Shown here piece by piece: positions 1,285 to 18,307 of a DNA stretch of 19,862 bases. A program made the translations under genes and the position numbers. This DNA is from a virus (Duplodnaviria; Heunggongvirae; Uroviricota; Caudoviricetes). Positions within the stretch are counted from its first letter, which is position 1; each line of letters opens with the position of its first letter. The notes below the pieces were generated by a model that was not told the origin of the DNA, searched no databases, and worked only from the letters and a program-made list of their open reading frames with translations. The DNA is taken from the IMG/VR virus record IMGVR_UViG_2516143081_000003; one strand, written 5' to 3'.

Positions 1285-1887
1285 AATTCACAGGTGTTTT
1301 TTCCCATCCTGTGGTTTCCTTGGCGTTTTCTAGGTTTTTTCAGATAGTTGCATTTTTTAAAAAGCATCCTAAGTTCGATCTCAGTGTCTATCTGGGGCCC
1401 ATTTCTGTCCCATATATGCCCCAAAAAAACTCCTCAACAGATAAGTAGTTTTTTCATGGAGTTACGCGTAAAATCAATAACGGCTGGAAATCATTCAATA
1501 CTCGCACTATCGAAAAATTTACCAGCCAACCGCAGCACGTTCTTGCATAAGGCGTGTCTGCGGTTTTTCAACTATTCAGATACATCACTCCCATCACATT
1601 CATTCCTCCACATCAAAGGCATATAGGCTATATCACCTTGATATTTTTCTTCTTCAGATAAAAACTGTTATCTATGTATACTTTTAAACCCAATCCGTGT
1701 AGAGTCTCTGCATAAGATAGTTTGCAGTTGCCACTTCAGCTTGCGCCATAAACCGCCTGATTTTTGCCGCCATCTGTTAGCATTCCTGTATACCTGAAAC
1801 GACAATGTTTATCTACGAACTTTAAGAACACCCAGGATAAAAATTGTCAACTATATCATATATAACACATTACTAATTCGAGGCTAT

Positions 1888-2001
1888 ATGAACAGCATAC
1901 TGATAATCACTTCGCTCCTTATCATATTCAGCATTTTTAGTCATGCTCTAATAAAATTAGGGATTGGCATATCCAATAACCCAGACAAAACCGATGTATA
2001 A
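1888..2001 (+). CDS. Candidate 37-aa hydrophobic small protein ([37 protein letters not shown])
   Basis: Not in the ORF track. ATG at 1888 with GAGG 4 nt upstream; one predicted TM helix; lies in AT-rich DNA between the prophage junction and ydfK. Confidence 0.25.
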
Positions 2002-2069
2002 GTCAACATATCCTGAATCAGACATACAATATCGCAATGAAAATCAATAATATTTTAAGGAATATATTC

Positions 2070-2303
2070 ATGAAATCAAAAGACACCCTAAAGTGGTTCC
2101 CTGCGCAGCTTCCTGAAGTCAGAATTATCCTAGGGGATGCTGTAGTGGAAGTAGCAAAACAGGGAAGACCTATCAATACCAGAACATTGCTTGATTACAT
2201 TGAAGGAAACATAAAGAAAAAATCATGGCTGGATAACAAAGAATTATTACAAACAGCGATATCAGTTCTTAAAGACAACCAAAATTTAAATGGTAAAATG
2301 TAA
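2070..2303 (+). CDS. ydfK: Small cold-shock-associated prophage protein YdfK (77 aa)
   Basis: ATG at 2070 has AAGGA 8 nt upstream; the ORF-track start at 2037 has no RBS. Protein MKSKDTLKWFPAQLPEVRIILGDAVVEV... recognised from recall. Confidence 0.8.
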   Translation: MKSKDTLKWFPAQLPEVRIILGDAVVEVAKQGRPINTRTLLDYIEGNIKKKSWLDNKELLQTAISVLKDNQNLNGKM

Positions 2304-2462
2304 TATAATAAACTTACTTTTTTATCATTTTTCCACTTTAACAACATTTTGCTCCACTTTTCCACGACCAAACAACTTGAAATCTGGTTAAAATAACACG
2401 CAACACTATTCTTCTTCCTTGAGTCCGCCCGGAACTCGAAAAACAAACCGAGTTAAAGCCAT

Positions 2463-2488
2463 TTTTCACAAAATCGATTTTGGGTCTC
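2463..2488. other. Candidate orphan invertase crossover-like site (perfect 14-bp palindrome CAAAATCGATTTTG inside a 26-bp dyad)
   Basis: TTTTCACAAAATC|GATTTTGGGTCTC lies about 130 bp upstream of pinQ. The half-sites resemble the A-tract half-sites of Hin/Gin/Cin/Pin crossover sites (for example TTATCAAAAACC) but differ at the centre. No second copy found in the window. Confidence 0.3.
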
Positions 2489-2619
2489 ACCAAAGTTACG
2501 GGGTTGCATACGCATTCGTTTATTTTCGAACGTGTACATACAAATATGCACAAAAATAATCAAAATTATTTTCTGAGATGCATTATGATATGAACACCAA
2601 TTTCGTATAGAGTCTCACT

Positions 2620-3210
2620 ATGTCTCGAATTTTTGCTTACTGTCGGATATCAACGCTGGATCAGACCACCGAAAATCAACGCCGGGAAATCGAAAGTGCA
2701 GGTTTTAAAATCAAACCTCAGCAAATAATCGAAGAACACATTAGCGGCTCAGCAGCAACCAGTGAGCGTCCTGGTTTTAACCGGTTGCTTGCTCGCCTGA
2801 AATGTGGTGATCAATTGATTGTGACAAAACTGGATCGCCTTGGTTGTAATGCAATGGATATCAGGAAAACAGTGGAACAACTGACCGAAACAGGTATCAG
2901 AGTGCATTGCTTAGCATTGGGGGGCATTGACCTGACCAGTCCAACAGGAAAAATGATGATGCACGTAATTTCAGCAGTCGCTGAATTTGAACGAGACCTT
3001 TTACTTGAACGCACTCATTCCGGGATAGTAAGAGCCCGCGGCGCAGGGAAACGTTTTGGTCGACCACCTGTGTTAAATGAAGAACAGAAACAGGTGGTAT
3101 TCGAACGAATTAAGTCAGGTGTAAGTATAAGTGCCATTGCCCGGGAATTCAAAACCTCGCGGCAAACCATTTTAAGAGCCAAAGCAAAACTTCAGACACC
3201 TGACATATAA
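2620..3210 (+). CDS. pinQ: Serine recombinase, DNA invertase Pin/Gin/Hin family (196 aa)
   Basis: N-terminal resolvase catalytic domain with the active-site Ser in YCRISTLDQ; C-terminal HTH ([19 protein letters not shown]). Confidence 0.95.
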
Positions 3211-3307
3211 AAAATAATCTCGGTGTGAGATGCTTTACGTCTTCCAAGCCCCCTTCCTTGCCGTAAATGGAGAGATACATCTAATTATAGAATTTATATG
3301 TTTTACC

Positions 3308-3883
3308 CTACGGCAGTGCTGGCCATTCAATATCCGGTGCAGTTGATGTATCAACACGGTTCAGCAACACCCGATACTTTTTCCAGGCTTCCAGCAACAA
3401 GGTTTCTTCCTCCGTTGCGATCTCCAGATCCACAGCATCCTGAAGCGGCGCTATATGCTCACTGGCTATCTGCATCAGGCTGTTTTTTGTTTCTTCCGCC
3501 TCCCGGATCCGGAACAGTTTTTCTGCTTCCGTATCCTTCACCCAGGCTGTGCCGTTCCACTTCTGATATTCCCCTCCCGGCGATAACCAGGTAACATTTT
3601 CCGGTAACGGACCGAGTTCAGAAATAAATAACGCGTCGCCGGAAGCCACGTCATAAACCGTTTTACCCCGATGATCTTCAACGAGATGCCACGATGCCTC
3701 ATCACTGTTGAAAACAGCCACGAAGCCTGCCGGAATATCTGGCGGTGCAATATCGGTACTGTTTGCTGGCAGACCTGTATGAGGCGGAATATATGCGTCA
3801 CCTTCACCAATAAATTCATTAGTTCCGGCCAGCAGATTATAAATTTTTATGGTCCGTGGTTGTTCACTCATTCTGAATGCCAT
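3308..3883 (-). CDS. tfaQ: Tail fibre assembly protein (191 aa)
   Basis: Tfa-family sequence. Its ATG at 3881-3883 overlaps the stop codon of the upstream chimeric ORF, as in stf-tfa pairs. Confidence 0.9.
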
Positions 3884-5217
3884 TACGCAAGCCTCACAAT
3901 ATAGTTAAATGCGATGTTTTTGACGGTGTTTTCCGCGTTACCAGCAGCGTTAACGGTGATGGTATGTCCATGTGAACCAATCGCAACGGAGTGCGTATGA
4001 GCACCAATACCGACAGTATGTGCGTGTGCACCTGCGCTTGCAGCAGTATCTGATGGTCGGTCCTGCACGAACGTCAGCGTCTGCCCGTTCCATACCGGCA
4101 TACAGCGCATCGCCGAGCAGAAATCACTGAGAACATCCCACGCCTTACGCTGTGTGGTCAGCCAGGCATTACAGGTGATGCGCGGCTCCGTGCCGCCAAA
4201 ACCGTCCGGCACCGACTGGTCGCAACACTGGCCGATGACATACAGCGCCCATTTATCCACATCTGCCGCACCAAGACGTTTACCCATGCCGTAGCGCGGG
4301 TGGGTCAGCATATCCCACAGACACCAGGCCATGTTGTTGCTGTATGCTGGCTTAAACGTTCCGTCCTGCTGACGGATGACGCAGGCATTATGCTCACAGA
4401 GATAAAACACGCTGGAGGGATCATCCGGCATCCATTTGAGGCCAAACGGCGTCTCTTTGTCGCCAAATTTAAGGTACTGCTCCTTCCCGCAGTGCGGGCA
4501 GGCAACATGAAAACGCATAAAATGCGGGGATTCACTGGCTGCACGCTCAATCTGGCAGGTGCCTCTCACTTTGGGCGTGGAGCCACGGATGGATTTTGGC
4601 CAGACAGAGCCTTCAATACGCTTATCGCCCAGGAACGTCGGAGAGCCTTCCTGTTCAATATCCTCATCAAAGGCAGCAAGTTCATCATAACCCGCCACAT
4701 CCACTGTCTTTTCACGGTAGTTTTTTGCCGCTTTACCGCCCAGGCACCAGAAGCCACGCCCATTGGTGAAACGCTTCATGGTGAGCGTGTTATCCCGGTG
4801 CTTTTTGCCATACCACGGGGCCAGCGCCAGCAGCGAAGGAATATCACGGATGGTCGGCTCAACGTGGGTTTTCATAAAGTTCTCGGCATCACCATCCGTC
4901 GGCAACCAGATAAGTGTGTTGCGCTGCTTATGCTCTATGAAGTAGGCATAAACACCCAACAGCATTTTGGAATAACCAACACGGGCAGACTTCACCACAT
5001 TCACCTCGCGGATGTAGTCGCTGCCCATCGCATTCATGATGGCCCGCTGAAAGGGCAGTGTTTCCCAGCGCCCTTCCTGGTATGCGGATTCTTTCGGGAG
5101 ATAGTAATTGGCATCCGCCCATTCAACGGCGGTCTGTGGCTCCGGCCTGAACAGTGAGCGAAGCCCGGCGCGGACAAAATGCCGCAGCCTGTTAACCTGA
5201 CTGTTCGATATATTCAC
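3883..5217 (-). pseudogene. stfQ: In-frame chimera: terminase large subunit A N-terminus (aa 1-284), internal segment of tail tip protein J (aa 285-390), side tail fibre C-terminus (aa 391-444)
   Basis: Residues 1-284 match recalled lambda gpA (GTG start overlapping Nu1, as in lambda). [20 protein letters not shown]...FVQDRPSD matches recalled lambda J. The C-terminus ends ...[11 protein letters not shown] like lambdoid Stf. Joints at about nt 4366/4365 and 4048/4047. Confidence 0.85.
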
Positions 5218-5737
5218 TCAGCAACCCCGGTATCAGTTCATCCAGCGCGGCTGCTTTGTTCATGGCTTTGATGATATCCCGTTTCAGGAAATCAACATGT
5301 CGGTTTTCCAGTTCCGGAAAACGCCGCTGCACCGACAGGGGGATCCCGTCGAGAATACTGGCAATTTCACCTGCGATCCGCGACAGCACGAAAGTACAGA
5401 ATGCGGTTTCCACCACTTCAGCGGAGTCTCTGGCATTTTTCAGCTCCTGTGCGTCGGCCTGCGCACGCGTAAGTCGATGGCGTTCGTACTCAATAGTCCC
5501 TGGCTGGAGATCTGTCTCGCTGGCCTGCCGCAGTTCTTCAACTTCCCGGCGCAGCTTTTCGTTCTCAATTTCAGCATCCCTTTCGGCATACCATTTTATG
5601 ACGGCGGCAGAATCATAAAGCACCTCATTACCCTTGCCACCGCCTCGCAGAACGGGCATTCCCTGTTCCTGCCAGTTCTGAATGGTACGGATACTCGCAC
5701 CGAAAATGTCAGCCAGCTGCTTTTTGTTGACTTCCAT
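5192..5737 (-). CDS. nohA: Terminase small subunit, lambda Nu1 homologue (181 aa)
   Basis: Near-identical to recalled lambda Nu1 ([29 protein letters not shown]..., winged HTH); cos lies immediately upstream. Confidence 0.9.
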
Positions 5738-5739
5738 TG

Positions 5740-5960
5740 TTCATTCCACGGACAAAAACAGAGAAAGGAAACGACAAAGGCCAAAAAGCCCGCTTTCAGC
5801 ACCTGTCGTTTCCTTTCTTTTCAGGGGGTATTTTAAATAAAAACATTAAGTTACGACGAAGAAGAACGGAAACACCTTAAACCGGAAAATTTTCATAAAT
5901 AGCGAAAACCCGCGAGGTCGCCGCCCCGTAACCTGTCGGATCACCGGAAAGGACCCGTAA
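5740..5960 (-). other. Lambda-type cos region; the 12-nt cohesive-end sequence GGGCGGCGACCT (cosN) is at 5915-5926 on the minus strand
   Basis: The minus strand reads GGGCGGCGACCTCGCGGGTTTTCGCTATTTATGAAAATTTTCCGG..., matching the recalled lambda left end through cosB into Nu1. The plus-side flank resembles the lambda right end. Confidence 0.85.
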
Positions 5961-6125
5961 AGTGATAATGATTATCATCTACATATCACAACGTGCGTGG
6001 AGGCCATCAAACCACGTCAAATAATCAATTATGACGCAGGTATCGTATTAATTGATCTGCATCAACTTAACGTAAAAACAACTTCAGACAATACAAATCA
6101 GCGACACTGAATACGGGGCAACCTC

Positions 6126-6359
6126 ATGTCAACGAAGAACAGAACCCGCAGAACAACAACCCGCAACATCCGCTTTCCTAACCAAATGATTGAACAAATT
6201 AACATCGCTCTTGAGCAAAAAGGGTCCGGGAATTTCTCAGCCTGGGTCATTGAAGCCTGCCGCCGGAGACTGTGCTCAGAAAAAAGAGTTTCTTCTGAAG
6301 CAAACAAAGAAAAGAGTGACATTACTGAATTGCTCAGAAAACAGGTCAGACCAGATTGA
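6126..6359 (+). CDS. ynfO: Small lambda-right-end-like protein (77 aa), possible ribbon-helix-helix fold
   Basis: ORF MSTKNRTRRTTTRNIRFPNQMIEQINIALEQKG...; basic N-terminus followed by an Arc/MetJ-like segment; weak RBS. Confidence 0.65.
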   Translation: MSTKNRTRRTTTRNIRFPNQMIEQINIALEQKGSGNFSAWVIEACRRRLCSEKRVSSEANKEKSDITELLRKQVRPD

Positions 6360-6416
6360 AGCAATTTAGATAATCGTGCAGACTACGCCCCCTCATATCA
6401 CATGGAAGGTTTATCT

Positions 6417-6827
6417 ATGGATCAGGTAGTCATTTTTAAACAAATATTTGATAAAGTTCGAAACGATTTAAACTATCAATGGTTTTATTCTGAGCTAAAA
6501 CGTCACAATGTCTCACATTACATTTACTATTTAGCCACAGAGAATGTTCATATTGTATTAAAAAATGATAATACAGTGTTATTAAAGGGCCTAAAAAACA
6601 TTGTGTCTGTCAAATTTTCAAAGGATAGGCATCTTATAGAAACGACCTCTAATAAGCTGAAATCCAGAGAGATCACATTTCAGGAATACAGAAGAAACCT
6701 TGCTAAAGCAGGAGTTTTTCGGTGGGTTACAAATATCCACGAACAAAAAAGATATTACTATACCTTTGATAATTCATTACTATTTACTGAAAGCATCCAG
6801 AAAACTACACAGATCTTACCACGCTAA
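6417..6827 (+). CDS. ydfO: DUF1398-like prophage protein of unknown function (136 aa from the second ATG)
   Basis: ATG at 6417 has GGAAGG 7 nt upstream; the ORF-track ATG at 6402 has no RBS. Very AT-rich codon usage, consistent with an acquired accessory gene. Confidence 0.75.
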
Positions 6828-6978
6828 ACCATAACGTCCGGCTTCTCTCACTCCTGAGCCGGACTGCATTGGTTTAATAAAAACCATCAACAATTGTGAT
6901 TTAGATATTCGGAACCATTCAAATATAACAAAACCCCGTAAAAACGAGGTTTATGGATAAATTTTATTATTGAATACA

Positions 6979-7152
6979 TCAGATTAAATTAATCTTGACA
7001 TCATAGCTTTCAAGACCCGTCATTTTTTCCCGTGCGGTAAACTGAATACTGGTAACTTCTTTCCCGGTCTTTTTCTTAAGTTCAATAATTTTTTTTGTTA
7101 TATATTCAGAAATATCTGCTTCTGCTTTTGTTTTTAAGTTTTCAATATTCAT
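6979..7152 (-). CDS. gnsB: Gns-family small protein (57 aa; MNIENLKTKAEADISEYITKKIIELKKKTGKEVTSIQFTAREKMTGLESYDVKINLI)
   Basis: Not in the ORF track (under 60 aa). Tandem ATGs at 7155 and 7152 behind AGAGGAA; recognised Gns family. A stem-loop followed by a U-rich tract lies downstream. Confidence 0.75.
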   Translation of the reverse strand: MNIENLKTKAEADISEYITKKIIELKKKTGKEVTSIQFTAREKMTGLESYDVKINLI

Positions 7153-7323
7153 CATTTCCTCTTTTAGTCTGTTATGACTTTCCAGTTACACAGTAAGTCG
7201 ATTATATGGTGCAAACGTGTAAAAGATAAGATGAAACATCGCAATAATCAACATACGATAGTCTAAATTTTACACAAACAGACAAAGAGAATTTTCCTGA
7301 ATTATCAATGCAATAGCATCAAA

Positions 7324-7479
7324 TCAACTCAAGAGCCTTATTGCTGCTTCCAGAATTTCTTCTGAAGTAACATGTCGATCCGCGGCTACATAAATGACTT
7401 TATGATCTCCGGTCAGAGATGGAAACCCTGCGGCCATTACAGTAAGGTGTGTTTTTTCGCCATTTGGATATTCACGCAT
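7324..7479 (-). CDS. ynfN: Small prophage protein YnfN (51 aa from MREYPNG...)
   Basis: ATG at 7479 with GGAG about 11 nt upstream. Alternative starts are the ATG at 7500 (58 aa) and the GTG at 7515 used by the ORF track. Confidence 0.6.
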   Translation of the reverse strand: MREYPNGEKTHLTVMAAGFPSLTGDHKVIYVAADRHVTSEEILEAAIRLLS

Positions 7480-7595
7480 GATGGTGTTAACTCCAGTCAT
7501 CGCTGGCACTACCACTGCTGGTTCAGAGTTAAAAAAACTATGATTTTTTTCATGATGTTACCGTAGTATGTGAGTATCCATCGAATAGACACCAA

Positions 7596-7625
7596 GCAAA
7601 AAAGCTCCCGAAGGAGCCTTCATTT
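7596..7625 (-). terminator. Rho-independent terminator (GGCTCC-TTCG-GGAGC followed by UUUUUUGCUU on the minus strand)
   Basis: GC stem with tetraloop and U-tract, about 200 nt downstream of the cspI stop. Confidence 0.5.
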
Positions 7626-7824
7626 TCACTTTTTTAAATCCAACGACAGACGGCTGGCATTTAAGTATTGTGAAATATTATCAAATGTAATCATCATTGA
7701 TTTACAAAAGATACATTTTGCCCCGAAAGGATTCATGTCAGAAACATCAAAAGATGATGTTCTATACTGGGAACCATGACAACACGGGCATCTAAAGTGA
7801 ATATGGTTTGTAATATTGTCTACC

Positions 7825-8037
7825 TCAAAGCGCCACTACATGAACAGCGGCAGGACCTTTAGGTCCGTTCTCAATACCAAATTCAACTTCCTGATTCTCA
7901 GTTAATGTTTTGAAATCGTTGCTCTGAATTGCTGAGAAATGGACAAACACATCTTTGCTGCCATCTTTCGGCGTGATGAAACCAAAACCTTTTTCAGGGT
8001 TAAACCATTTCACTAAACCAGTCATTTTGTTAGACAT
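7825..8037 (-). CDS. cspI: Cold shock protein CspA family (70 aa)
   Basis: [23 protein letters not shown]...; RNP1 motif KGFGFI and RNP2 motif VFVHF. Confidence 0.95.
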
Positions 8038-8399
8038 AATTATTACCTTTTGAAGAAATTAGCCCTTGGGCAGAATGGTCCGAAAAAAAATATCAGAGAG
8101 AAAAACCAACAAGGAAATCTCAAGAGGTACAAATAATAAAATTATAACAATGACTGCTTCAGATAAATTTGTAACAAACCAGAACACCATTAACGCATGA
8201 TTAACCACCCATAGCAAGGATTACTTTTGTAAAGAAAAACACAGCAATGAAAGAATAGCTTTATTTATTAATAAAACGTGTCATTCTGATTAAGACCTTT
8301 TATCTTACCCTTAAGATTTCAGGAATTTTGGCTCATGGAAGAGTCCTTTTTATTTAAATTTTACATTCCGCGATGTAAATGTTCCGATTTAATATTACC

Positions 8400-9423
<1,024 letters not shown>

Positions 9424-9427
<4 letters not shown>

Positions 9428-9735
9428 AGATATTTATGATGAGGACGCTCGTGCTTATTGGCAGGATTTTCAATCTTAAAGGAGTACTGATGCTGCAGAT
9501 AAGACTCAACTTTTTCTGACAATTTTTCTGCTACTTCCAGGAAGACTTGCCGGACGCTCCTTCTGGCTGCTGCCTCATAAAACTCCAGCGCAGCTCCTTC
9601 AACACGGTCCATGGCGACATCCAGGTCAAAAATTTCACCGTCAAAGCGTTCTTTGTCCTGTAAGGCTACAGTTACCGTAACTTTATTCTCAAAATTACGG
9701 ACTCCTTTCACAACCAGTTCATAGTCTTGAGTCAT
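9424..9735 (-). CDS. ydfR: DUF1327-like protein inserted between holin and endolysin (103 aa)
   Basis: ATG at 9735 with GAGGAGAG 7 nt upstream; its stop overlaps the rrrQ start (ATGA). Confidence 0.7.
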
Positions 9736-9739
9736 TGGA

Positions 9740-9955
9740 TTACTCTCCTCTCGCAGCCTTACGCCTGTCTTCTTTAATCTTGAAATAAAGATTTGTCAGA
9801 TACGTCAGCAGGCCAAAAACCAGGCTACCCAGCACACCGATTGCAGCCCACTGTGACGGAGTTACTTTATCGAGTAACTGCAATGCCCAGAAACCAGCAT
9901 TACCCGCCGATGTGCCATAGGCAACACCTGTTGTTAACTTATCCATTGATTTCAT
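9740..9955 (-). CDS. essQ: Class II holin / pinholin, phage 21 S-like (71 aa), with a dual-start motif M-K-S-M
   Basis: Close to recalled S21 (...[60 protein letters not shown]). ATGs at 9955 and 9946 behind GGGGTGAGGA. Confidence 0.85.
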
Positions 9956-10174
9956 ATCCTCACCCCGATGTACACGGATGGTGCAATATGTTTGAAAAGA
10001 TCGGAGTCTACGGGGTAGTTTTGACAGCACACGTTGTTCTCAACGGCGCTAAAAAAACATACACATTAAAAATGTGGGTAATTATTTTGAAAGAAAGTCA
10101 TATATAAAATAATAATACGAGAAATGTTTTCATATTTAGTGTACTGTATACGGCCATTTATACAGGAAAAGCCT

Positions 10175-10345
10175 ATGTCAGAACGTAAAAACTCAAAATC
10201 ACGCCGTAATTATCTCGTTAAATGTTCCTGCCCAAACTGCACCCAAGAGTCAGAACACAGTTTTTCAAGAGTACAAAAAGGTGCCCTTTTGATCTGCCCT
10301 CATTGCAACAAAGTATTCCAGACAAATCTTAAAGCTGTAGCCTGA
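10175..10345 (+). CDS. Candidate zinc-ribbon small protein (56 aa; MSERKNSKSRRNYLVKCSCPNCTQESEHSFSRVQKGALLICPHCNKVFQTNLKAVA)
   Basis: ATG at 10175 with AGGA 7 nt upstream; paired Cys motifs CxCPNC and CPHC. Possibly the gene I recall as ynfU, but I am unsure of that name and location. Confidence 0.55.
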   Translation: MSERKNSKSRRNYLVKCSCPNCTQESEHSFSRVQKGALLICPHCNKVFQTNLKAVA

Positions 10346-10402
10346 TTGATTTTATTAGTAACAAGTATTTTTTATATTTTAATAATATATTTAAAGCAGA
10401 TA

Positions 10403-10427
10403 ATAAAAAACCCGCCTGAGCGGGTTT
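10403..10427. terminator. Bidirectional rho-independent terminator (CCCGC-CTGA-GCGGG)
   Basis: Flanked by an A-run upstream and T-run downstream. On the minus strand it reads stem plus UUUUUUAUUAUC and would terminate cspB; it is weaker on the plus strand for the zinc-ribbon ORF. Confidence 0.6.
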
Positions 10428-10708
10428 GAGATTGTGGTGCTTTTTGTGGGAGTCATCCACTTACGCACTTTGTTTTGCCATGCCAGCAGTTAGCTTCTGC
10501 TGTAAAACTATTCATGCAGCAAACCTGCACTTCACCACAATGGTTAGCATACTTTTCCTGATTAAGATTTTGCCAAATATGCTAGCCATTGTTTCATGTA
10601 TTGGACCTCCTTACTTTTTATTAAAGAGATCCAATATTCACTACTCTGTCCGTATCTCTACTCAGGCATCAGCCTTCTTCGTTATCGTATACAGACGAGC
10701 GATGAATT

Positions 10709-10924
10709 TTAATCAGTAATGATGACATTTGCTGCTGCAGGACCTTTAGCACCACTCTCTATAGAGAAGGTAACCTTTTGACCTTCAAATAAGGTTCGAT
10801 AATTATCATTCTGAATCGCAGAAAAATGCACAAACACATCTTTACTACCATCAACAGGAGAAATAAAGCCGAAACCTTTATCAGCGTTAAACCATTTTAC
10901 TAAACCAGTCATTTTATTTGACAT
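10709..10924 (-). CDS. cspB: Cold shock protein CspA family (71 aa)
   Basis: [23 protein letters not shown]... with RNP motifs. The upstream 5' UTR contains a cspA-like GCCGAAAGGC element just before the RBS. Confidence 0.95.
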
Positions 10925-11224
10925 TCTACATTCCTTAACTTGAGCCTTTCGGCATAAATGGTTTGCATAACAGAAACGACTTCGTACTTAATTGGAGAGA
11001 CTCAAAGAAGGAATAAGTGAATAACACCTGAAATGAGAACTGCTTTAGTAAACTACTTCGTATATCGTCTGTTCTTCAAACCGACGCAATCATTAACGCA
11101 TAGTTGAACATATGAAGCAATGTTTATTTTAGACATCCAGCCATCTTCAACCCCATCAAAAAACTATAGCTTTCTTCAGGAACGTGTGTATAGTGCGCCA
11201 AGTTATCAGTATTAAGGAATTTTT

Positions 11225-11437
11225 TTGTCCCGTAAAATGACAGGAATTGTCAAAACCTTTGACGGCAAAAGCGGCAAGGGTCTTATCACCCCATCCGATG
11301 GTCGTATCGATGTCCAGCTTCATGTTTCAGCGCTCAATCTCCGCGATGCAGAAGAAATTACCACCGGATTACGCGTGGAATTTTGCCGGATAAATGGTCT
11401 GCGTGGCCCTTCAGCTGCCAATGTTTACCTTTCATGA
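11225..11437 (+). CDS. cspF: Divergent CspA-family paralogue (70 aa), TTG start
   Basis: TTG at 11225 with AAGGAA 5 nt upstream. Cold-shock domain fold, but the RNP1 motif is degenerate (KSGKGLITP). Confidence 0.8.
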
Positions 11438-11491
11438 GCTATATTAAAGCTTTAATTTCAGGCCCCATCGGATCACACATGGAGAGTTTTT

Positions 11492-11581
11492 ATGAATAAC
11501 CCCGTCTGTCTTGATGACTGGTTGATTGGCTTTAAAAGCTTATGCTGTACTTTGGCCGTAATAGCTCTGCTAATAATATAA
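11492..11581 (+). CDS. Candidate 29-aa hydrophobic peptide ([29 protein letters not shown])
   Basis: Not in the ORF track. ATG at 11492 with GGAGAG 5 nt upstream; C-terminal TM-like segment; lies between cspF and a terminator. Confidence 0.35.
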
Positions 11582-11728
11582 TAAGCAGACTCATTGTGTT
11601 TAGGGACATTGTACTGGAAGAAAACATTTTAAACATCAGGCAAATAACCAAGTCACCAGCTAAATAATAAGTTAACAGACATGAGTCCCGGGATGAGATT
11701 CAACATTACCATTGCCCCATTTAAAGCA

Positions 11729-11765
11729 CAAAACCCGCTCATCAGCGGGTTTTCTACTTTTTCTT
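11729..11765. terminator. Rho-independent terminator (AAACCCGCT-CATC-AGCGGGTTT followed by TCTACTTTTTCTT on the plus strand)
   Basis: Strong for plus-strand cspF transcripts. On the minus strand it sits about 40-60 nt downstream of a candidate late promoter, in a tR'-like position. Confidence 0.6.
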
Positions 11766-11798
11766 AACGTCGGGTATACAAAGCCCATCGTTGAAAAA

Positions 11799-11827
11799 AT
11801 TTTATCCATATTTTTTGAAAAATGCAA
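11799..11827 (-). promoter_or_regulatory. Candidate late promoter (PR'-like) immediately downstream of Q
   Basis: Minus strand reads TTGCAT (11827-11822), 17-nt spacer, TAAAAT (11804-11799); located about 30-60 bp past the quuQ stop, as PR' is in lambdoid phages. Confidence 0.35.
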
Positions 11828-11858
11828 ACATCATGTCGCCATCTTCAGCAAAAATCAT

Positions 11859-12611
11859 TTATCTCGTCACCTTCCTCAATTGCGCTTCCGCGTATGCTTC
11901 TTCCTGCCAGCACTTTGTTACCAGTTTACCAATGACGTCCGCATACCCCTTATACCACTGATAATCGGTCAGGTCTGGTACCAGCTTCTGGACATGACGT
12001 CGTGCCAGCGTGGTCGGTAAACGACTAAACCGGTTTCCATTACAACGCCCACAAATCTTATATACCGGTACGCCATGAAACCGGGTTCTTTTTTCATCCA
12101 GAACAATCCCTTTACCCTTACACCCTCTGCACGCTGTGCTGGCTTCGCCCTTACCATGGCAATGCTGACATAGTTCCTTCACCCATTCTTCCTTGATTAC
12201 AGATTCCCCGCGTCTGTAGTGTTTCACCACTTCGCGCAATACATTATAAAATCCCGTACCTGAACAATGCTCACAGCGAGCCTTACTTGCCGCAGACCTG
12301 GAGTAATCAGCAAAGGCAAAACTCACGAGGTAAGGAATAATCTGTAACCGGATTTCTTCACTCAATTTGTTCAATGTCGGGTTATCCAGTGCCATCGCGT
12401 AATTTAGCAGGCCTTCAATCGCAAACTGAGGGTCCTGAACACCAACTTTTGCCAGAAATAAGGCCAACCCAAGTGGTGCTTTCGACTGCACCATCCCCTG
12501 CGCTGCCATTACATCCGTAATTGTTAAACAACCGGTGCCTGTCGCTGGAGCGTCATCGCTCAATTTTGGAGATTTTGGGGAGTAATATTTTGGTAAGGCT
12601 TCAAGGTTCAT
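11859..12611 (-). CDS. quuQ: Late-gene antiterminator Q (250 aa)
   Basis: ATG at 12611 with GGAGAA 5 nt upstream; Cys-rich zinc-binding region (CEHCSGTG...CQHCHGKG...CRGCKGKG...CGRCNG). The ORF-track start at 12641 is a TTG. Confidence 0.85.
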   Translation of the reverse strand: MNLEALPKYYSPKSPKLSDDAPATGTGCLTITDVMAAQGMVQSKAPLGLALFLAKVGVQDPQFAIEGLLNYAMALDNPTLNKLSEEIRLQIIPYLVSFAFADYSRSAASKARCEHCSGTGFYNVLREVVKHYRRGESVIKEEWVKELCQHCHGKGEASTACRGCKGKGIVLDEKRTRFHGVPVYKICGRCNGNRFSRLPTTLARRHVQKLVPDLTDYQWYKGYADVIGKLVTKCWQEEAYAEAQLRKVTR

Positions 12612-12624
12612 GCTCGTTCTCCAC

Positions 12625-13674
12625 TTACGCCAGTACGCCAATTGCCAGCGCGCGATCGATAAAACGAAATATCAGCTCCAGTTGAGAGCCATACTTATCT
12701 TCAAATGCCACTGTATCCGTATGCAGCTCGTTGTGATGCTTTCTGCACAAAGGCAACACAAAGAGATCATGTGCTTTTGTTCCCATTCCGCCCTGCCCGT
12801 GACCAATCAGATGATGCGGATCGTCGGCTGGCATACCGCAGCAAGCACACGGCTGTGTCTTAACCCAACGTGTGTATTTCTCCTTAACCCAGCGGCGACG
12901 TTTAGGCAGCTTCATGAAAGATTCCGGAGACTCTGGATCAACGGTGATGCTTACCACCGTCTTTTCCTGTGGTGATTTTTGTTGCTGGTGGGCGTAAGGC
13001 AACGGTGCAAGATTTTTTGTGCGTTGTTTCAATATGCTGGTGGCGGTCTGCTCTCCCGGTACGATGTCGCTTTCGCGGTACACCGAGCAGATTTTTTCCG
13101 CTGGTAATCCCAGCGAACGACGCGATACAGCCTCAGGTAGTGCATCCACCACCTGATTGCAGACCGCCCACCAGGATAATTCAGCCAAAGATAATTCCCG
13201 CTCCTGCGTACCGCTTATTGCGTGACGGATGACGTCAATCACCCATGCTGTCAGATTTTGTTGAGCAAGCAGCTCCAGTGATTCCGATGTCTGGTCACGC
13301 AGTTGGTTGTCGCAGTGCCAGCACAACACCATTGCGCCGGTACCATAACGGTGAATGACTGTTTCAGTGTGATGGTAATCGCCATTAGGCCACTGGCAGG
13401 ATGTAACATGACGTAATAGCCAGTCGGACAATGCGCCAACGCCGCCAGCAGCACGAATCACCCGTTCGTTACTAAAAAACGGCAGCAATGTTTTGTCTTC
13501 CGCCAGCGGCTGGCGAACGGCAGGAACGACTCCGGATGGCAGATTACGCATGCTTTTTGGTTCCGGTTCCACCAGCACTCGAGGATTATGAAATATCTGT
13601 ATGGATTCACGGCCCGGCTTAAGGACCACCAGCCCAAGCTCAGGCACCAGAACAGGTCTAAGTAATACCCGCAC
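12625..13674 (-). CDS. ydfU: Nin-region protein with a C-terminal HNH-type motif (DUF968-like, 349 aa from GTG)
   Basis: GTG at 13674 lies 1 nt after the stop of the upstream 92-aa ORF. C-terminus CACCGMPADDPHHLIGHG...HDLFVLPLCRKHHNELH fits an HNH zinc-binding nuclease fold. Confidence 0.8.
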   Translation of the reverse strand: MRVLLRPVLVPELGLVVLKPGRESIQIFHNPRVLVEPEPKSMRNLPSGVVPAVRQPLAEDKTLLPFFSNERVIRAAGGVGALSDWLLRHVTSCQWPNGDYHHTETVIHRYGTGAMVLCWHCDNQLRDQTSESLELLAQQNLTAWVIDVIRHAISGTQERELSLAELSWWAVCNQVVDALPEAVSRRSLGLPAEKICSVYRESDIVPGEQTATSILKQRTKNLAPLPYAHQQQKSPQEKTVVSITVDPESPESFMKLPKRRRWVKEKYTRWVKTQPCACCGMPADDPHHLIGHGQGGMGTKAHDLFVLPLCRKHHNELHTDTVAFEDKYGSQLELIFRFIDRALAIGVLA

Positions 13675-13675
13675 G

Positions 13676-13954
13676 TTACCTCCAGATCCGTTGCTGGAAA
13701 GTGCGGGACGCACGTGGTGGGCGTTCGGAATAAGGCAGCCTGACAGAGATTATCCAGTGCCGATAGTCGAGACTGAGAGCTTTCTTAACCTCGAACCCGC
13801 GCCTGCGGTAAGAATGAATCAGCCATTCGGCCTGTTCTGCAGTGCATGGAGGGTGCTGGAACCATTCAGACTTGAATGCGTGAGAATACCGCCCGTGCGT
13901 GCAGGCAAGAACGGGCGAATTATCAGAATTGTAATATTTTGCGTTGCGTGCCAT
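13676..13954 (-). CDS. Hypothetical 92-aa protein translationally coupled to ydfU
   Basis: ATG at 13954 with GGAG 7 nt upstream; stop TAA at 13676-13678 abuts the ydfU GTG. I do not recognise the sequence. Confidence 0.45.
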   Translation of the reverse strand: MARNAKYYNSDNSPVLACTHGRYSHAFKSEWFQHPPCTAEQAEWLIHSYRRRGFEVKKALSLDYRHWIISVRLPYSERPPRASRTFQQRIWR

Positions 13955-14020
13955 CGGTTTTCTCCGGTGGCACGGTGTTACTCAGCGGGAGTTCAGCCCC
14001 GCGCAAGATTGTAGATGAGT

Positions 14021-14272
14021 TTATTCTCCTGAAAAAGCAGAAAAGCCAGCTTTTATTCCGATCTCTTTCAATGCCTGTAATGAAGTGACAAACTCACCTT
14101 CGCGCAAGATAAATCCGTCCGTGACCCGAGCATCCACAAAATTAATTAACGCAGCCCCATTCTTTCGCAAACACATAATGCGGTAATGACTAACAAGATT
14201 TCCATTTTCAACGCACACAGCATAGAGGCCATCTTCACAAAAAATTTTACGCAGTTCTTCGATGTTCATCAT
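14021..14272 (-). CDS. rem: Small protein of unknown function (83 aa), probably Rem
   Basis: Tandem ATGs at 14272 and 14269 with GGAAGGA 5 nt upstream; immediately downstream of the hokD terminator. Name assigned by position and recalled length only. Confidence 0.55.
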   Translation of the reverse strand: MMNIEELRKIFCEDGLYAVCVENGNLVSHYRIMCLRKNGAALINFVDARVTDGFILREGEFVTSLQALKEIGIKAGFSAFSGE

Positions 14273-14385
14273 CAGAATCCTTCCGGATAATTAGCTCTCC
14301 CCTTTAAGGGACCATCCCTCTTATCCCTGCGCGCTACTTAAGTATTTTTGATTCTATTCCGGCACCGTCCAGAACTTCAAACGCG

Positions 14386-14420
14386 TTGAAAATAAAACAA
14401 AAACCCGCCGAAGCGGGTTA
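14386..14420 (-). terminator. Rho-independent terminator of the relB-relE-hokD operon
   Basis: Minus strand reads AACCCGC-TTCG-GCGGGTT followed by UUUGUUUUAUUUU, about 70 nt after the hokD stop. Confidence 0.65.
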
Positions 14421-14487
14421 AGTGCGGGTGCGTTGAGGATGCCTGCCACATCAGAGGTGGCGAGGGATTTCTCCCCCGCCGGGTCTC

Positions 14488-14643
14488 TTACTCCTCAGGT
14501 TCGTAAGCTGTGAAGACAGCGACCTCCGTCTGGCCGGTTCGGATTCGTACCTCGCAGAGGTCTTTCCTCGTTACCAGTGCCGTCACTATGACGGTTAAAC
14601 AGATGACGATCAGGGCGATTAACATCGCCTTTTGCTGCTTCAT
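14488..14643 (-). CDS. hokD: Hok-family membrane toxin (51 aa; MKQQKAMLIALIVICLTVIVTALVTRKDLCEVRIRTGQTEVAVFTAYEPEE)
   Basis: Not in the ORF track (under 60 aa); found by hand translation. AGGAGAAG lies about 6 nt upstream of the ATG at 14643; Hok-family TM helix and conserved Cys. Confidence 0.9.
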   Translation of the reverse strand: MKQQKAMLIALIVICLTVIVTALVTRKDLCEVRIRTGQTEVAVFTAYEPEE

Positions 14644-14714
14644 AGCCTGCTTCTCCTGTCAACGCAAAGCAGAAGTGTCACCTTCGGTGCGAAACAGAGA
14701 TGTCATGCTTTGGT

Positions 14715-15002
14715 TCAGAGAATGCGTTTGACCGCCTCGCTATATACTTCCGAGCGTTCTCTTTTCCCAACAGAAATCACGAAAACGACAACTTTCTCGT
14801 CTATAACCTGGTATACAAGGCGATAGCCTGAAGACCGGAGCTTAATCTTGTAACAATCAGGCATACCACGGAGCTTGTTTGCTTCAATCCGGGGTGACTC
14901 AAGTACTTCAACCAGCTTCTTTTTCAACTGTTCACGTACCGTCGAGCCCAGCTTTCGCCATTCCTTTAGTGCCCGCTCGTCAAAATCCAGAAAATACGCC
15001 AT
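14715..15002 (-). CDS. relE: RelE mRNA-interferase toxin (95 aa)
   Basis: Recognised sequence; start overlaps the relB stop (ATGA). Confidence 0.95.
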   Translation of the reverse strand: MAYFLDFDERALKEWRKLGSTVREQLKKKLVEVLESPRIEANKLRGMPDCYKIKLRSSGYRLVYQVIDEKVVVFVISVGKRERSEVYSEAVKRIL

Positions 15003-15241
15003 CAGAGTTCATCCAGCGTCACACGTACTGGCTTAGGATTACGAAGCCGTTCTTTCACTATCTCCACAAGTTCAGCATCTTCATCACTCAGGAGTGTCTG
15101 TTTGAACGGCAAGCGTTCATTGTCAGCGATATACTCGAGCATGAGACGAAGCGCTTCAGAAGGAGTTACACCCATTTTTTCAAGCGCGGCGTAAGAACGC
15201 GCTTTAAGTTCATCGTCAATACGCAGGTTAATGCTACCCAT
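15002..15241 (-). CDS. relB: RelB antitoxin (79 aa, ribbon-helix-helix)
   Basis: Recognised sequence MGSINLRIDDELKARSYA...; an operator palindrome lies directly upstream. Confidence 0.95.
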   Translation of the reverse strand: MGSINLRIDDELKARSYAALEKMGVTPSEALRLMLEYIADNERLPFKQTLLSDEDAELVEIVKERLRNPKPVRVTLDEL

Positions 15242-15252
15242 GTCTTACACCT

Positions 15253-15278
15253 CTTGTAATTACAAATGTCATTACAAG
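15253..15278 (-). promoter_or_regulatory. relBE operator (relO): palindrome TTGTAATTACAA within inverted repeats CTTGTAAT ... ATTACAAG
   Basis: Perfect 12-bp palindrome at 15255-15266, flanked by 8-bp inverted arms, between the putative promoter and the relB RBS. Confidence 0.7.
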
Positions 15279-15571
15279 TATCGCACTACAACATGCTTAG
15301 GGCAAGTCACGAAGGAAGTCAGAAAGTAGTCGTAAGAACGGTGATCACTGTCCGCTTTGTGCCAGGAGCAGCCATTGCTAAGTCCATCCTGTATTGTGCA
15401 GGTCAGCTCGTTTTTAAAGAGTCCGGCCATCATCTTACTGGTACAGACACCATATACTTTGTGACGGTCAGGCTACATATGCACAACTCAACTTATTCAT
15501 CTATTTTTTGCTTTAGCATGTCAGTGTTGCTTTCTCGTCGGCGGGTGAGCGGTGACCTGACCTGTCGATAA
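15266..15571 (+). CDS. ydfV: Doubtful ORF (101 aa) upstream of flxA
   Basis: ORF overlaps the relB operator and promoter region; no clear RBS; no recognisable domain. Symbol assigned by position from recall only. Confidence 0.3.
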   Translation: MSLQVSHYNMLRASHEGSQKVVVRTVITVRFVPGAAIAKSILYCAGQLVFKESGHHLTGTDTIYFVTVRLHMHNSTYSSIFCFSMSVLLSRRRVSGDLTCR

Positions 15572-15723
15572 AGGAACGTAACACGTTTTATGCAACACCC
15601 GCATGCGGCAGAAAATTATTGCCGAACGTTTACCCCTGTCAACAAGCTTTACTTTCTGAGGCGCGCCAGCCCGCGAGGAAAACAATCTGAACATCAAACA
15701 ATTAATGACACAAGAAATACGAT

Positions 15724-15750
15724 TAAAGATTTTTTTGTGCATGCCGATAG
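15724..15750 (+). promoter_or_regulatory. Sigma-28 (FliA) class 3 flagellar promoter driving flxA
   Basis: TAAAGATT (15724-15731), 11-nt spacer, GCCGATAG (15743-15750) against consensus TAAAGTTT-N11-GCCGATAA; about 25 bp upstream of the flxA ATG. Confidence 0.7.
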
Positions 15751-15773
15751 TGCTTTTTTAAAAGGAGAAATCT

Positions 15774-16106
15774 ATGTCTGTCACAATTCAGGGAAATACC
15801 TCAACCGTTATTTCAAACAACTCCGCCCCGGAAGGAACATCAGAAATAGCCAAAATCACAAGACAAATTCAGGTGCTGACTGAAAAGCTTGGGAAAATCT
15901 CATCGGAAGAGGGGATGACGACACAGCAGAAAAAAGAAATGGCTGCATTGGTACAGAAGCAAATTGAAAGCCTCTGGGCTCAACTGGAGCAGTTGTTAAG
16001 GCAGCAGGCAGAGAAAAAGAATGAAGACGCGACAGTTCAGCCTGATAAAAAAGAAGAGAAAAAAGACGATACAAATACCGCTGGCACCATTGATATTTAC
16101 GTCTAA
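15774..16106 (+). CDS. flxA: FliA-regulated protein FlxA (110 aa), coiled-coil Gln/Lys-rich
   Basis: ATG at 15774 with GGAG 6 nt upstream; the sigma-28 promoter directly upstream and a terminator directly downstream. Confidence 0.85.
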   Translation: MSVTIQGNTSTVISNNSAPEGTSEIAKITRQIQVLTEKLGKISSEEGMTTQQKKEMAALVQKQIESLWAQLEQLLRQQAEKKNEDATVQPDKKEEKKDDTNTAGTIDIYV

Positions 16107-16120
16107 GTGACAGCCGTATT

Positions 16121-16147
16121 GTGGCCCTCATCGGGCCACTTTTCGCC
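16121..16147 (+). terminator. Rho-independent terminator of flxA (GTGGCCC-TCATC-GGGCCAC followed by TTTT)
   Basis: Perfect 7-bp GC-rich stem followed by a T-run, 15 nt after the flxA stop. Confidence 0.7.
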
Positions 16148-16542
16148 ATCAGCCTTTTCTTTAAAGACATATTATCTTTGTATCATTTCTGATAGTTAAC
16201 ATTACAAGATATAAGTAATGGACGCACTCCCAATTAGTCTATTTAAATCGCCACGAGTTTAACTGACAACCCATGATCAATTATGAATTGCAACTATTTC
16301 TGTAGTCACTTTTGTGGGGACAGTCCACAAAACTGCCAACTTCCGCTTCTTGCTCTTAGCGGACATTAGCATAGGCTATTTACCATAACGCCTCATTACG
16401 CGCACCGCCCAGACTGACTCAGCGCGTTTCTGGCATATCCCCGGTAAAACAAGTAACAAACCACCCGAAAATGAACACCAGAAACGCGACTTAAGAATCT
16501 ACCCTATGAATGGATATGCACTCAACCGAATCGATCTTGGTT

Positions 16543-17307
16543 TCAATCTTTTTTATCGGGATCAGGCTTCTTTTTAGGTAACTTCGGGGGCTTAACTTGC
16601 TGATGACTTTGCGTTCGGCGCGTAAGCCAGGGATGGTCAGCTTTAGGTTTAACATAGTATTTTGAGCGTAAATCAATACGGGCATTATCCACTCGTTCAT
16701 GGACACTCTTTTCATCATCCAGTGGTATAGGCTCCGGGCCATCAACATACTTTTCCCAGCCCAGCGCTTTCCCGTCATACAGAACGTTAATTTCACCGTC
16801 AAAGTTCTCGCATACAGTAACAACCGAATGCCTAAGTCGATATCCCCGGCCCTCACTGCGTACCTGAAACGCACTGCTTTTGTACTGGAAAGTGAGATTT
16901 TTAGACAGAACGCGCTTCGCCTGTAGGCTGAAGATATAACCCAGTTCCTCTTCAGAATGGTGCACATCAAGATGAGCATTATCAGTAGTACGAGGCGACG
17001 TAGCGAACCGGTTGTTATAGGCTTCAATAAAGGTCGGCAACCATGCATTTGCTGTTTCAATATCACTGATATTCTGAAGCCGCATTTCTTTGACCAGCCT
17101 GTCCTGTAGTGTCTGATTGGCGCGCTCTACCCGCCCTTTTGCCTGCGGGCTGTTGGCATGGATTGGCTCGATGCCCAGTGTCTTTATCGCACGAGTGAAC
17201 TGGGTCAGCTCACCTTCCCGCTCTGGGTTATTTACCCTGAATATACTGTGTCTATCAGAGTAGAGAGCGAGCGGTACGCCATGATCATTAAGGTAGCCTT
17301 CCAGCGT
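16543..17307 (-). pseudogene. intK: 5'-truncated integrase-core (rve, DDE) transposase/integrase fragment
   Basis: One continuous minus-strand frame reads ...YLNDHGVPLALYSDRHSIFRVNNPEREGELTQFTRAIKTLGIEPIHANSPQAKGRVERANQTLQDRLVKEMRLQNISD... with the D and E motifs. It opens only after a TGA at 17310-17308 and lacks the N-terminal DNA-binding part and first catalytic Asp region. Confidence 0.7.
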
Positions 17308-17513
17308 TCAAATATCTTCACTCGATTAACGCCAAGCGCTCGCTGATCAATCGCGCCACCTTCATATGTGACACGCTGAACATCGATGTTCGGGCGCTCT
17401 TTCAAAGCCCAGAATGCTTCAGTGATTAATATCGTCGCCTGCTCCTGTGTCATTCCTGGTCGACATATCCAGGCATCCAGAGCCTCACGAGCCTGTTCAG
17501 GAGTGATTTTCAT
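17232..17513 (-). pseudogene. ydfX: 93-aa ORF overlapping the start of the DDE fragment in another frame, probably a remnant
   Basis: Its 3' third overlaps the DDE-fragment frame at a +2 offset; its 5' end overlaps dicC by 17 nt. Symbol assigned by position from recall. Confidence 0.35.
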
Positions 17514-17727
17514 TGTTCAACCGCCCCGCCCGCTTCGTCTTACGATATTCATCATAAACTTTGGGATCATACTGAAGCTCCCCGCCAGATGCCTCCTGTA
17601 GACGCATCGCGCGACCTTCGGGAACTAAATCCCCTTTCCAGCTATAAAGCGAAGCCAAACGAATACCTGCTGCTTGTGCAAGTTTTGTTTTTGAACCGAA
17701 ATACAAAAGAGCGTCAGTTTTAAGCAT
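17497..17727 (-). CDS. dicC: Cro-like regulator DicC (76 aa)
   Basis: Recognised sequence; divergent from dicA with operators in between. Confidence 0.9.
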   Translation of the reverse strand: MLKTDALLYFGSKTKLAQAAGIRLASLYSWKGDLVPEGRAMRLQEASGGELQYDPKVYDEYRKTKRAGRLNNENHS

Positions 17728-17741
17728 TTAAAACACCTTTA

Positions 17742-17808
17742 TTGTTAGTAATAACTAACAAGATAGATGTTAACAAAAACATAGTCAATACGATTTAGCA
17801 TTAGCTAA
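17742..17808. promoter_or_regulatory. dicC-dicA divergent promoter region with two palindromic operator motifs (TTAGY-N4-RCTAA)
   Basis: TTGTTAGTAATAACTAACAA (perfect 20-bp palindrome, 17742-17761) and TTAGCATTAGCTAA (17795-17808). Confidence 0.6.
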
Positions 17809-17810
17809 CT

Positions 17811-18218
17811 ATGGAAACAAAAAATTTAACTATCGGCGAACGCATCAGGTATCGTCGGAAAAACCTCAAACACACCCAAAGGTCTCTTGCTAAAGCCCTG
17901 AAAATCTCCCATGTGTCTGTATCACAATGGGAACGGGGTGATAGTGAACCTACAGGGAAGAACCTTTTTGCCCTCAGCAAAGTATTGCAATGCTCACCAA
18001 CATGGATTCTATTTGGCGATGAAGACAAGCAACCAACACCACCTGTTGAGAAGCCAGTTGCCTTATCCCCCAAAGAACTAGAGCTCCTTGAGCTGTTTAA
18101 TGCACTGCCAGAATCAGAACAGGATACCCAGCTCGCCGAAATGCGAGCTCGAGTAAAAAACTTCAATAAACTCTTTGAAGAATTACTAAAAGCCCGTCAG
18201 CGGACAAATAAAAGATAA
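17811..18218 (+). CDS. dicA: XRE-family HTH repressor of the division-inhibition operon (135 aa)
   Basis: N-terminal HTH (TQRSLAKALKISHVSVSQWERG); recognised sequence. Confidence 0.95.
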   Translation: METKNLTIGERIRYRRKNLKHTQRSLAKALKISHVSVSQWERGDSEPTGKNLFALSKVLQCSPTWILFGDEDKQPTPPVEKPVALSPKELELLELFNALPESEQDTQLAEMRARVKNFNKLFEELLKARQRTNKR

Positions 18219-18278
18219 CATCATCAATGAGTTATCTTTTACCACATCAATTATGTTATCTATAGCATACAAAATCAC

Positions 18279-18307
18279 TTGACCGATATGTTAGTCATGG
18301 CTAATCT
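18279..18307 (+). promoter_or_regulatory. Candidate dicB-operon promoter with an overlapping operator
   Basis: TTGACC (18279-18284), 17-nt spacer, TAATCT (18302-18307); the spacer carries a third copy of the operator motif, TTAGTCATGGCTAA (18291-18304). Confidence 0.55.

Follow-up and report, generated by a model that had tools for sequence, protein, structure and literature searches.

Cryptic lambdoid prophages, among them DLP12 and Qin of K-12 as well as the prophage pool of Sakai, are generally accepted to act as chromosomal break points and as recombination partners of other phages. For example, in crosses between lambda and DLP12, 10 of 19 recombinant junctions were located next to cos (De Paepe et al. 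2014, PMC3945230), and the authors of that work proposed that breaks at cos in both lambda and the prophage stimulate the exchange (PMC3945230). It has also been reported that Sp4 of O157 Sakai, a prophage whose own terminase is broken, is nevertheless packaged, most likely through the action of the Sp14 terminase on an identical or nearly identical cos (PMC2669165), and in assays of the Feiss laboratory the packaging by a helper of passive prophages situated between two cos sites is routine (PMC4669245). Phage-inducible chromosomal islands of the cos type in E. coli (cos-type PICIs) carry cosN and exploit the terminase of a lambda-like helper (Fillol-Salom 2018; Murialdo and Feiss 2022, PMC9026076).

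The use of such a site is governed by a small number of sequence elements and by the two terminase subunits that act on them. The small subunit, TerS-lambda, possesses a winged-HTH with its recognition helix at residues 17-24 and its wing at residues 31-39 (PMC9026076), and TerS contacts bp 55-63 within the R3 element of cosB, which occupies bp 50-65 (Murialdo and Feiss, PMC9026076). R3 is the most critical of the R elements, with packaging defects known for positions bp 56, 58 and 59, and the spacing between cosN and cosB is subject to a strict requirement, even a 3-bp deletion being deleterious (PMC9026076). The I1 element sits between R3 and R2 (PMC9026076; PMC4669245), and cosQ is a conserved sequence of 7 bp (PMC4669245). 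The large subunit, TerL-lambda, carries in its C-terminal domain the endonuclease centre, a coiled coil and a portal-binding tether (PMC9026076). The terminase remains on the end that bears cosB, and packaging proceeds from Nu1 until the downstream cosQ-cosN is reached (PMC9026076; PMC4669245); according to reviews of the field, cos-type terminases need this second site, and uncut protruding DNA blocks the attachment of tails.

Here, a lambda-type cos site and the terminase genes next to it were analysed in a stretch of viral DNA of 19,862 nucleotides, referred to below as the window. The interpretation that we consider highly probable is that the feature is what remains of the cos-nohA-A' region of a cryptic, Qin-type lambdoid prophage in ydfJ, with a cos that is usable and with no efficient mobilisation. 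Step-wise deletions took the head and tail genes together with the nuclease half of the terminase. The cos of about 200 bp and the small-subunit gene survive, and both have near-identical counterparts in deposited genomes of lambda-like phages.

A Qin-type prophage in ydfJ

The window can be assigned to an E. coli cryptic lambdoid prophage of the Qin type that is inserted in ydfJ, as sequence comparison revealed both the insertion at the ydfJ 5' end and colinearity with the genes of K-12 Qin. Following ydfJ, the gene order includes ynfT and ydfK before pinQ is reached, and tfaQ adjoins a 444-aa ORF, being the next gene along the packaging direction (Table 1). To the right of cos are found ynfO, ydfO, gnsB, cspI, the lysis genes, cspB/F, the Q homologue ydfT and ydfU, and further to the right rem, hokD, relBE, flxA, dicC/dicA and ydfABC. 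K-12 Qin is colinear from nohA rightwards, with 99.9% identity over 11.5 kb, and the segments of the window that match it at 99.8-99.9% extend from 5209 to 16727 and from 17294 to 19862; in addition, the window abuts ydfJ. The NCBI draft assembly GCA_012746575.1 contains the sequence of the window save two one-base gaps in 15.2 kb. An inversion of the cspB/cspF segment relative to K-12, as read from the ORF list, was dropped, since blastn shows full colinearity.

Table 1. Position of the cos elements, terminase genes and neighbouring genes in the window, and their state relative to lambda.
Feature	Window position	Strand	Lambda position	Observation or basis
ydfJ	1-1284	minus		left end of the window
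pinQ	2620-3210			
tfaQ, tail-fibre assembly gene	3308-3883	minus		gene call; synteny with K-12 and strain 789
444-aa chimeric ORF	3883-5217	minus		in-frame gpA + gpJ + Stf; ends at the native stf stop beside tfaQ
Stf, C-terminal ~54 residues (~1067-1120)	3883-4047	minus		end of the 444-aa ORF
gpJ, internal fragment, ~residues 260-367 of 1159	4047-4366	minus		blastn against strain 789 prophage; Pfam Phage-tail_3
gpA (TerL) remnant, residues 1-284 of 641	4366-5217	minus	nt 711-1564	97% identical to lambda
nohA, Nu1-type terminase small subunit	5192-5737	minus		181 aa, full length; DNA-binding domain identical to lambda's
cosB R1	5762-5777	minus	bp 151-166	outermost base C151T at 5777; core CGTTTCC intact
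cosB difference	5777		bp 151	C>T
cosB difference	~5791		bp ~137	1-bp deletion
cosB R2	5803-5818	minus	bp 109-124	same sequence as in lambda; orientation opposite to that of R3 and R1
cosB difference	5825		bp 102	T>C
I1, IHF-consensus matches between R3 and R2	5836-5853	minus	bp 74-91	unchanged
cosB difference	5854		bp 73	A>G
cosB R3	5862-5877	minus	bp 50-65	one change, C53T at 5874; core CGTTTCC to TGTTTCC
cosB difference	5874		bp 53	C>T
I2, spacer between cosN and R3	5878-5914	minus	bp 13-49	identical to lambda
cosN, 12-nt cohesive end GGGCGGCGACCT	5915-5926	minus	bp 1-12	identical in lambda, K-12 Qin and strain 789
cosQ (GGGTCCT), termination signal	5950-5956	minus	48473-48479	region identical to lambda

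The similarity to K-12 is not uniform along the window. The part that corresponds to ydfJ (1-1351) contains no differences from K-12, and the left arm (1352-4047, with ynfT, ydfK, pinQ and tfaQ) contains 51. At 1.9% divergence this arm is set apart from the right arm, which is 99.9% identical, and the two arms therefore differ in history. Another difference is located between 16727 and 17294, where about 567 bp are also present in strain 789 and K-12 possesses 59 bp instead; this segment adjoins the region that in strain 789 holds replication genes and what is left of an ISNCY transposase, and it marks another end point of deletion within the early region.

Qin is said to have been described originally by Espion et al. 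in 1983, and lambda qin111 reportedly derived its late region from it. Among deposited phage genomes, PhiR42_1 carries Qin-type late-region morons (rzpQ, cspI, ynfN, gnsB and ydfO-like and ynfO-like genes) as well as an intact Nu1 and gpA, and its cosB allele is that of K-12 Qin across the aligned cosB. From this gene content, PhiR42_1 looks like an intact relative of Qin.

Composition of the cos site and its likely competence for a lambda-specificity terminase

The cosN sequence is present as a single copy in the window, on the minus strand, and all 12 of its bases are those of lambda. Identity to lambda is base-for-base over window 5927-6262 (lambda 48167-48502) and continues through lambda bp 1-52, a tract that spans cosQ, cosN and I2. 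Over 253 bp the cos region is 98.0% identical to that of lambda (E = 1e-121), and chance is therefore excluded as an explanation of the match. The initial annotation had described both the 12-nt cohesive end and the flanking cosB-like sequence as apparently identical to lambda; this is correct for the former and has to be corrected for the latter, as five differences are present in cosB (Table 1). The layout of cosB is nevertheless that of lambda, R3-I1-R2-R1 with an inverted R2, and its cores are placed at the lambda-equivalent bp 53-59 (TGTTTCC), 114-120 and 155-161. In I1, a consensus scan of our own yielded two matches, which are the same in lambda and in the window.

On the side of cosN that faces away from cosB, the identity to lambda runs through the first ~46 codons of ynfO (DUF3950, 6126-6359), after which homology ends. 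The right end of lambda contains, on the complementary strand, an apparent truncated ynfO-like frame that is unannotated in NC_001416.

With respect to function, the position of the five changes is of importance. None of them affects the contact bases of R3, bp 56, 58 or 59, or the spacing between cosN and cosB, and between lambda bp 1 and 52 there are neither indels nor substitutions that would alter the distance from cosN to R3. The bases at bp 55-63, which within R3 distinguish lambda from phage 21 or N15 specificity, are identical to those of lambda, the sole change in R3 being the one at bp 53, the first base of the CGTTTCC core common to the three R sequences. Thus, the point differences that could have spoken against recognition are found in cosB, five in number, and they spare both cosN and the R3 contact bases. 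Moreover, the DNA-binding domain of the Nu1 homologue is that of lambda, and a lambda-specificity terminase should therefore recognise this cos. The suggestion that a lambda-type phage could do so is accordingly retained by us in graded form: with cosQ, cosN, I2, the spacing and R3 bp 55-63 unchanged, recognition of the site by a lambda-specificity helper appears likely.

It could be argued that C53T, or any other of the cosB changes, blocks productive assembly of the terminase even when a helper is present, so that the site would be a dead relic. The rank of R3 as the most critical R element (PMC9026076) lends this view some weight, and so does the sequencing of capsid DNA from K-12, which gave no obvious packaging from cryptic cos sites. 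On the other hand, all five cosB variants co-occur in the phages 2H10 and PhiR70_1, the Nu1 of which is 100% identical to that of the window; both are known to us as records deposited as complete phage genomes, PhiR70_1 with E. coli C as its listed host. T53 is shared by 2H10, PhiR70_1 and the Stx1 phage Stx1_112808, and from 4708 to 5919 the window differs from PhiR70_1 by a single base. This combined match of cosB and Nu1 answers most of the concern raised by C53T. As the positions at which defects are known (56, 58 and 59), the contacts at bp 55-63 and the spacing between cosN and cosB are also unaltered, we regard a site that fails even with a helper as unlikely.

Packaging direction, termination and possible use by a helper

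Since cosB is situated at lower window coordinates than cosN, packaging from this site would run towards coordinate 1. The prophage DNA that would enter a capsid would be limited to about 4.65 kb, from cosN at 5926 to the Qin boundary near 1276, and the prophage DNA to the right of cos, at least 13.9 kb, would remain outside. On the contig of the matching draft assembly the host genes that follow the prophage are ydfJ, ydfI, ydfZ, rspR, ydfG and dcp, and the mar and lsr operons would come next in the packaging path if the synteny with K-12 continues. A second cos is absent from the window, and in 50 kb of the syntenic K-12 flank no cosN was detected at up to 1 mismatch and no cosQ-cosN composite at up to 4 mismatches.

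Some information on the use of such sites is available from K-12, which carries two cryptic lambda-type cos sites, in Qin and in DLP12. When lambda virions purified from a K-12 lysogen were sequenced, coverage consisted almost exclusively of lambda and its own flanks. The near absence of coverage beyond these regions indicates either that cryptic cos sites are rarely used or that their use yields no stable particles.

It had been proposed in the initial annotation that the prophage and the flanking host DNA become a substrate for helper-dependent packaging or for breaks induced by cleavage at cos. The first part is not supported in this form, as the DNA taken up would be mainly that of the host on the ydfJ side, most of the prophage is excluded, neither the window nor the 50-kb flank offers a cos for termination and the sequencing of capsid DNA speaks against frequent packaging; the second part, by analogy with what has been described for DLP12, would be a more realistic outcome than packaging. 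A stronger version, in which the remnant serves as an efficient helper-dependent launch site and gives rise to infectious particles at meaningful frequency, as in lateral transduction, appears quite unlikely to us. In its favour, the cos is competent by sequence, and defective prophages with a broken terminase have been found to be packaged by the terminase of a co-resident prophage (PMC2669165). Furthermore, a lambda-type cos region was detected in 4,593 of 5,426 complete E. coli genomes (85%), at 8,775 places in total, with 2 places per genome as the median and 8 as the maximum, and pairs at packaging distance might thus exist. However, packaging is unidirectional and leads away from most of the prophage, the second cosQ-cosN that is needed is found neither in the window nor in the 50 kb of syntenic flank, the Sp4 precedent concerns an excised and amplified circular element and the window shows no evidence of excision or replication, and DNA of K-12-derived lambda virions is almost without coverage away from lambda.

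An extension of this idea, which in our opinion is very unlikely, holds that, in strains that carry or meet an active lambda-specificity phage, packaging of the chromosome on the ydfJ side may start from Qin-type remnants as fixed sites and proceed in one direction. If this were true, and if a cosQ-cosN of the same orientation were provided 36-51 kb downstream by another prophage, infectious transducing particles would result. The process would be the counterpart among cos phages of lateral transduction, which current reviews assume that cos phages do not perform, and the packaged ydfJ-side stretch would, with K-12 synteny, include dcp, the mar operon and the lsr operon.

Terminase genes and decay of the locus

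The NohA protein shares 179 of its 181 residues with Nu1 of lambda, the only differences being A75T and L132I, and the Pfam family Phage_Nu1 (PF07471) is matched over its full extent (1-164 of 164, E = 3.9e-101). Its winged-HTH recognition helix (residues 17-24) and wing (31-39) are as in lambda. The gpA remnant upstream of the J fragment is colinear with lambda gpA to residue 284. It retains the N-terminus that binds Nu1 and an ATPase domain in which both Walker motifs, A and B, are present (GpA_ATPase, PF05876, residues 47-285, E = 9.7e-51); in the 444-aa ORF this ATPase is the only gpA domain found by Pfam, and no nuclease domain was detected. As the endonuclease centre, the coiled coil and the tether of the C-terminal part are missing from its predicted product, the remnant is not a functional TerL. 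Lacking the nuclease domain and the portal-binding end, it leaves the element unable to cut its own cos. In these respects the initial annotation was accurate, both in reporting a full-length Nu1 homologue and in stating that the element cannot cut its own site, and its view of a truncated large subunit was right in that gpA stops at residue 284 of 641, but it did not capture that the ORF is a triple chimera rather than a shortened gpA.

The junctions of this chimera involve microhomologies of 3 nt and 1 nt, and both are in frame. A search for the gpA-J-Stf junctions in complete E. coli genomes gave, as the best match in one place, at most 78% of the 1401-bp query. The exact 444-aa protein is found in only 2 draft assemblies of a large collection and in none of the complete RefSeq E. 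coli genomes.

Comparison among strains shows that Qin at the ydfJ locus forms a decay series, all members of which keep cos. In strain 789, gpA and the tail genes are intact; VE-V11-M has a 601-aa terminase fusion ORF; the window retains gpA 1-284; in BUCT2930, the cos of which is 100% identical to that of the window, nu1 breaks off at codon 84 and continues directly into the J fragment also found in the window; and in K-12, nohA is fused to stfQ. The J fragment of E. coli BUCT2930 (7254-9044) runs 1 kb further than that of the window. The nested deletions of BUCT2930 and the window suggest descent from one ancestor, after which each decayed further on its own. Such varied end points, some of them nested, are in keeping with neutral erosion and not with selection for a particular product.

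A second trace of the history of the locus is its mosaic structure. Within 5209-16727 the window shows 14 differences from K-12 Qin, of which 10 fall in 5595-5874, that is, in cosB and the 5' end of nu1. To the left of cosN the sequence is PhiR70_1-like, to the right it is like K-12 Qin and lambda, and a mosaic boundary can therefore be placed at cosN. Recombination near cos with an active phage could account for such a boundary. The cosB side is said to be protected by bound terminase (cited in the context of PMC3945230), and, as the mosaic patch lies on this protected side, it constitutes weak evidence for an exchange initiated by cutting at cos.

That NohA and the nuclease-less gpA fragment are kept in order to poison or titrate a superinfecting terminase, or to occupy cosB, and thereby protect the host is most improbable: gpA 1-284 does retain its ATPase domain along with the N-terminal region that binds TerS, the reading frame is kept across both deletion junctions and the Rpp proteins of PICIs are known to interfere with terminase small subunits (Fillol-Salom 2018), but deletion end points vary widely between strains, which is the pattern of neutral erosion and not of one conserved product, the exact 444-aa protein occurs in only 2 assemblies and two in-frame junctions are expected by chance in about 1 in 9 cases. 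Selection for a decoy terminase was rejected on the grounds that these end points differ among strains.

Proposed behaviour of the remnant

Under the interpretation favoured here, that of a usable cos without efficient mobilisation, the remnant alone would be inert for packaging. When a lambda-specificity phage or prophage grows in the same cell, its Nu1 together with IHF would assemble on R3-I1-R2-R1, and the gpA of this helper would then nick cosN at 5915-5926. The terminase on the cosB end would translocate to lower coordinates through nohA, A', tfaQ, pinQ, ydfK and ynfT and, beyond the prophage, into ydfJ, ydfI and the host genes that follow. As a downstream cosQ-cosN is missing, packaging could not be completed properly, and mature transducing particles should consequently be rare.

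The other cut end, from 5927 onwards, would be exposed to RecBCD. Chi is active in one orientation only, as is well established, and the first correctly oriented Chi is located at 9002. The realistic outcome would thus be a double-strand break and recombination of the remnant with incoming lambdoid phages, and not efficient mobilisation. The intact state of cos and Nu1 would reflect recent descent from an active phage or recombination with one, and selection by the host need not be invoked.

Significance and comparison with known systems

The remnant is of an ordinary and already known kind, in a well-studied prophage family for which helper use and recombination clustered at cos have been published. 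If a helper cuts the cos, the chromosome would break at a predictable place, and incoming lambdoid phages would find in the remnant a partner for recombination; this would contribute to the mosaicism of phages and, on occasion, could mobilise host genes nearby. To this the present finding adds one allele and a clean example of step-wise decay, in which a 200-bp cos has outlived its enzyme.

The use of a chromosomal cos in trans by a helper has precedents. It is reportedly seen in the docL particles of lambda, described by Sternberg and Weisberg in 1975. In the assays of the Feiss laboratory (PMC4669245), a helper whose cosB specificity matches acts in trans on a cos in the chromosome, both cosN and cosB being required for initiation; those assays supply a second downstream cos, whereas the window and the 50-kb syntenic K-12 flank have none. 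Like the window, the Sp4/Sp14 pair of Sakai (Asadulghani et al. 2009, PMC2669165) involves a defective lambdoid prophage without an intact terminase. In Sp4, however, it is the small subunit that is broken, by an IS, and the prophage excises and amplifies, whereas in the window the large subunit is truncated and most morphogenetic genes are gone.

A PICI-like satellite was considered as an identity for the element and rejected, as its cosB is of the phage type and its genes are those of the Qin late, lysis and immunity modules according to the annotation of K-12 and strain 789. PICIs resemble the window in being without packaging machinery of their own and reliant on a lambda-like helper terminase. 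They differ from it in that they excise, replicate and, by means of Rpp, redirect TerS to a non-phage cosB, whereas the window carries a phage cosB and a lambdoid late region.

The cos-nohD region of DLP12 (De Paepe et al. 2014, PMC3945230) likewise belongs to a cryptic prophage with a lambda-like cos and with homology to nu1 and A. Prophage and locus are not those of the window, and recombination was measured there experimentally, whereas the window offers a mosaic boundary at cosN alone. The most direct counterpart is K-12 Qin itself (the nohA-cos region in the neighbourhood of b1548), which occupies the same ydfJ site with the same gene order and has a cosN, cosQ and I2 identical to those of the window. 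In K-12 Qin, nohA runs into stfQ after residue 176 and nothing of gpA is left, whereas the window keeps a full Nu1 as well as gpA 1-284 and the J fragment; the cosB allele is of the G54A type in K-12 Qin and of the C53T type in the window.
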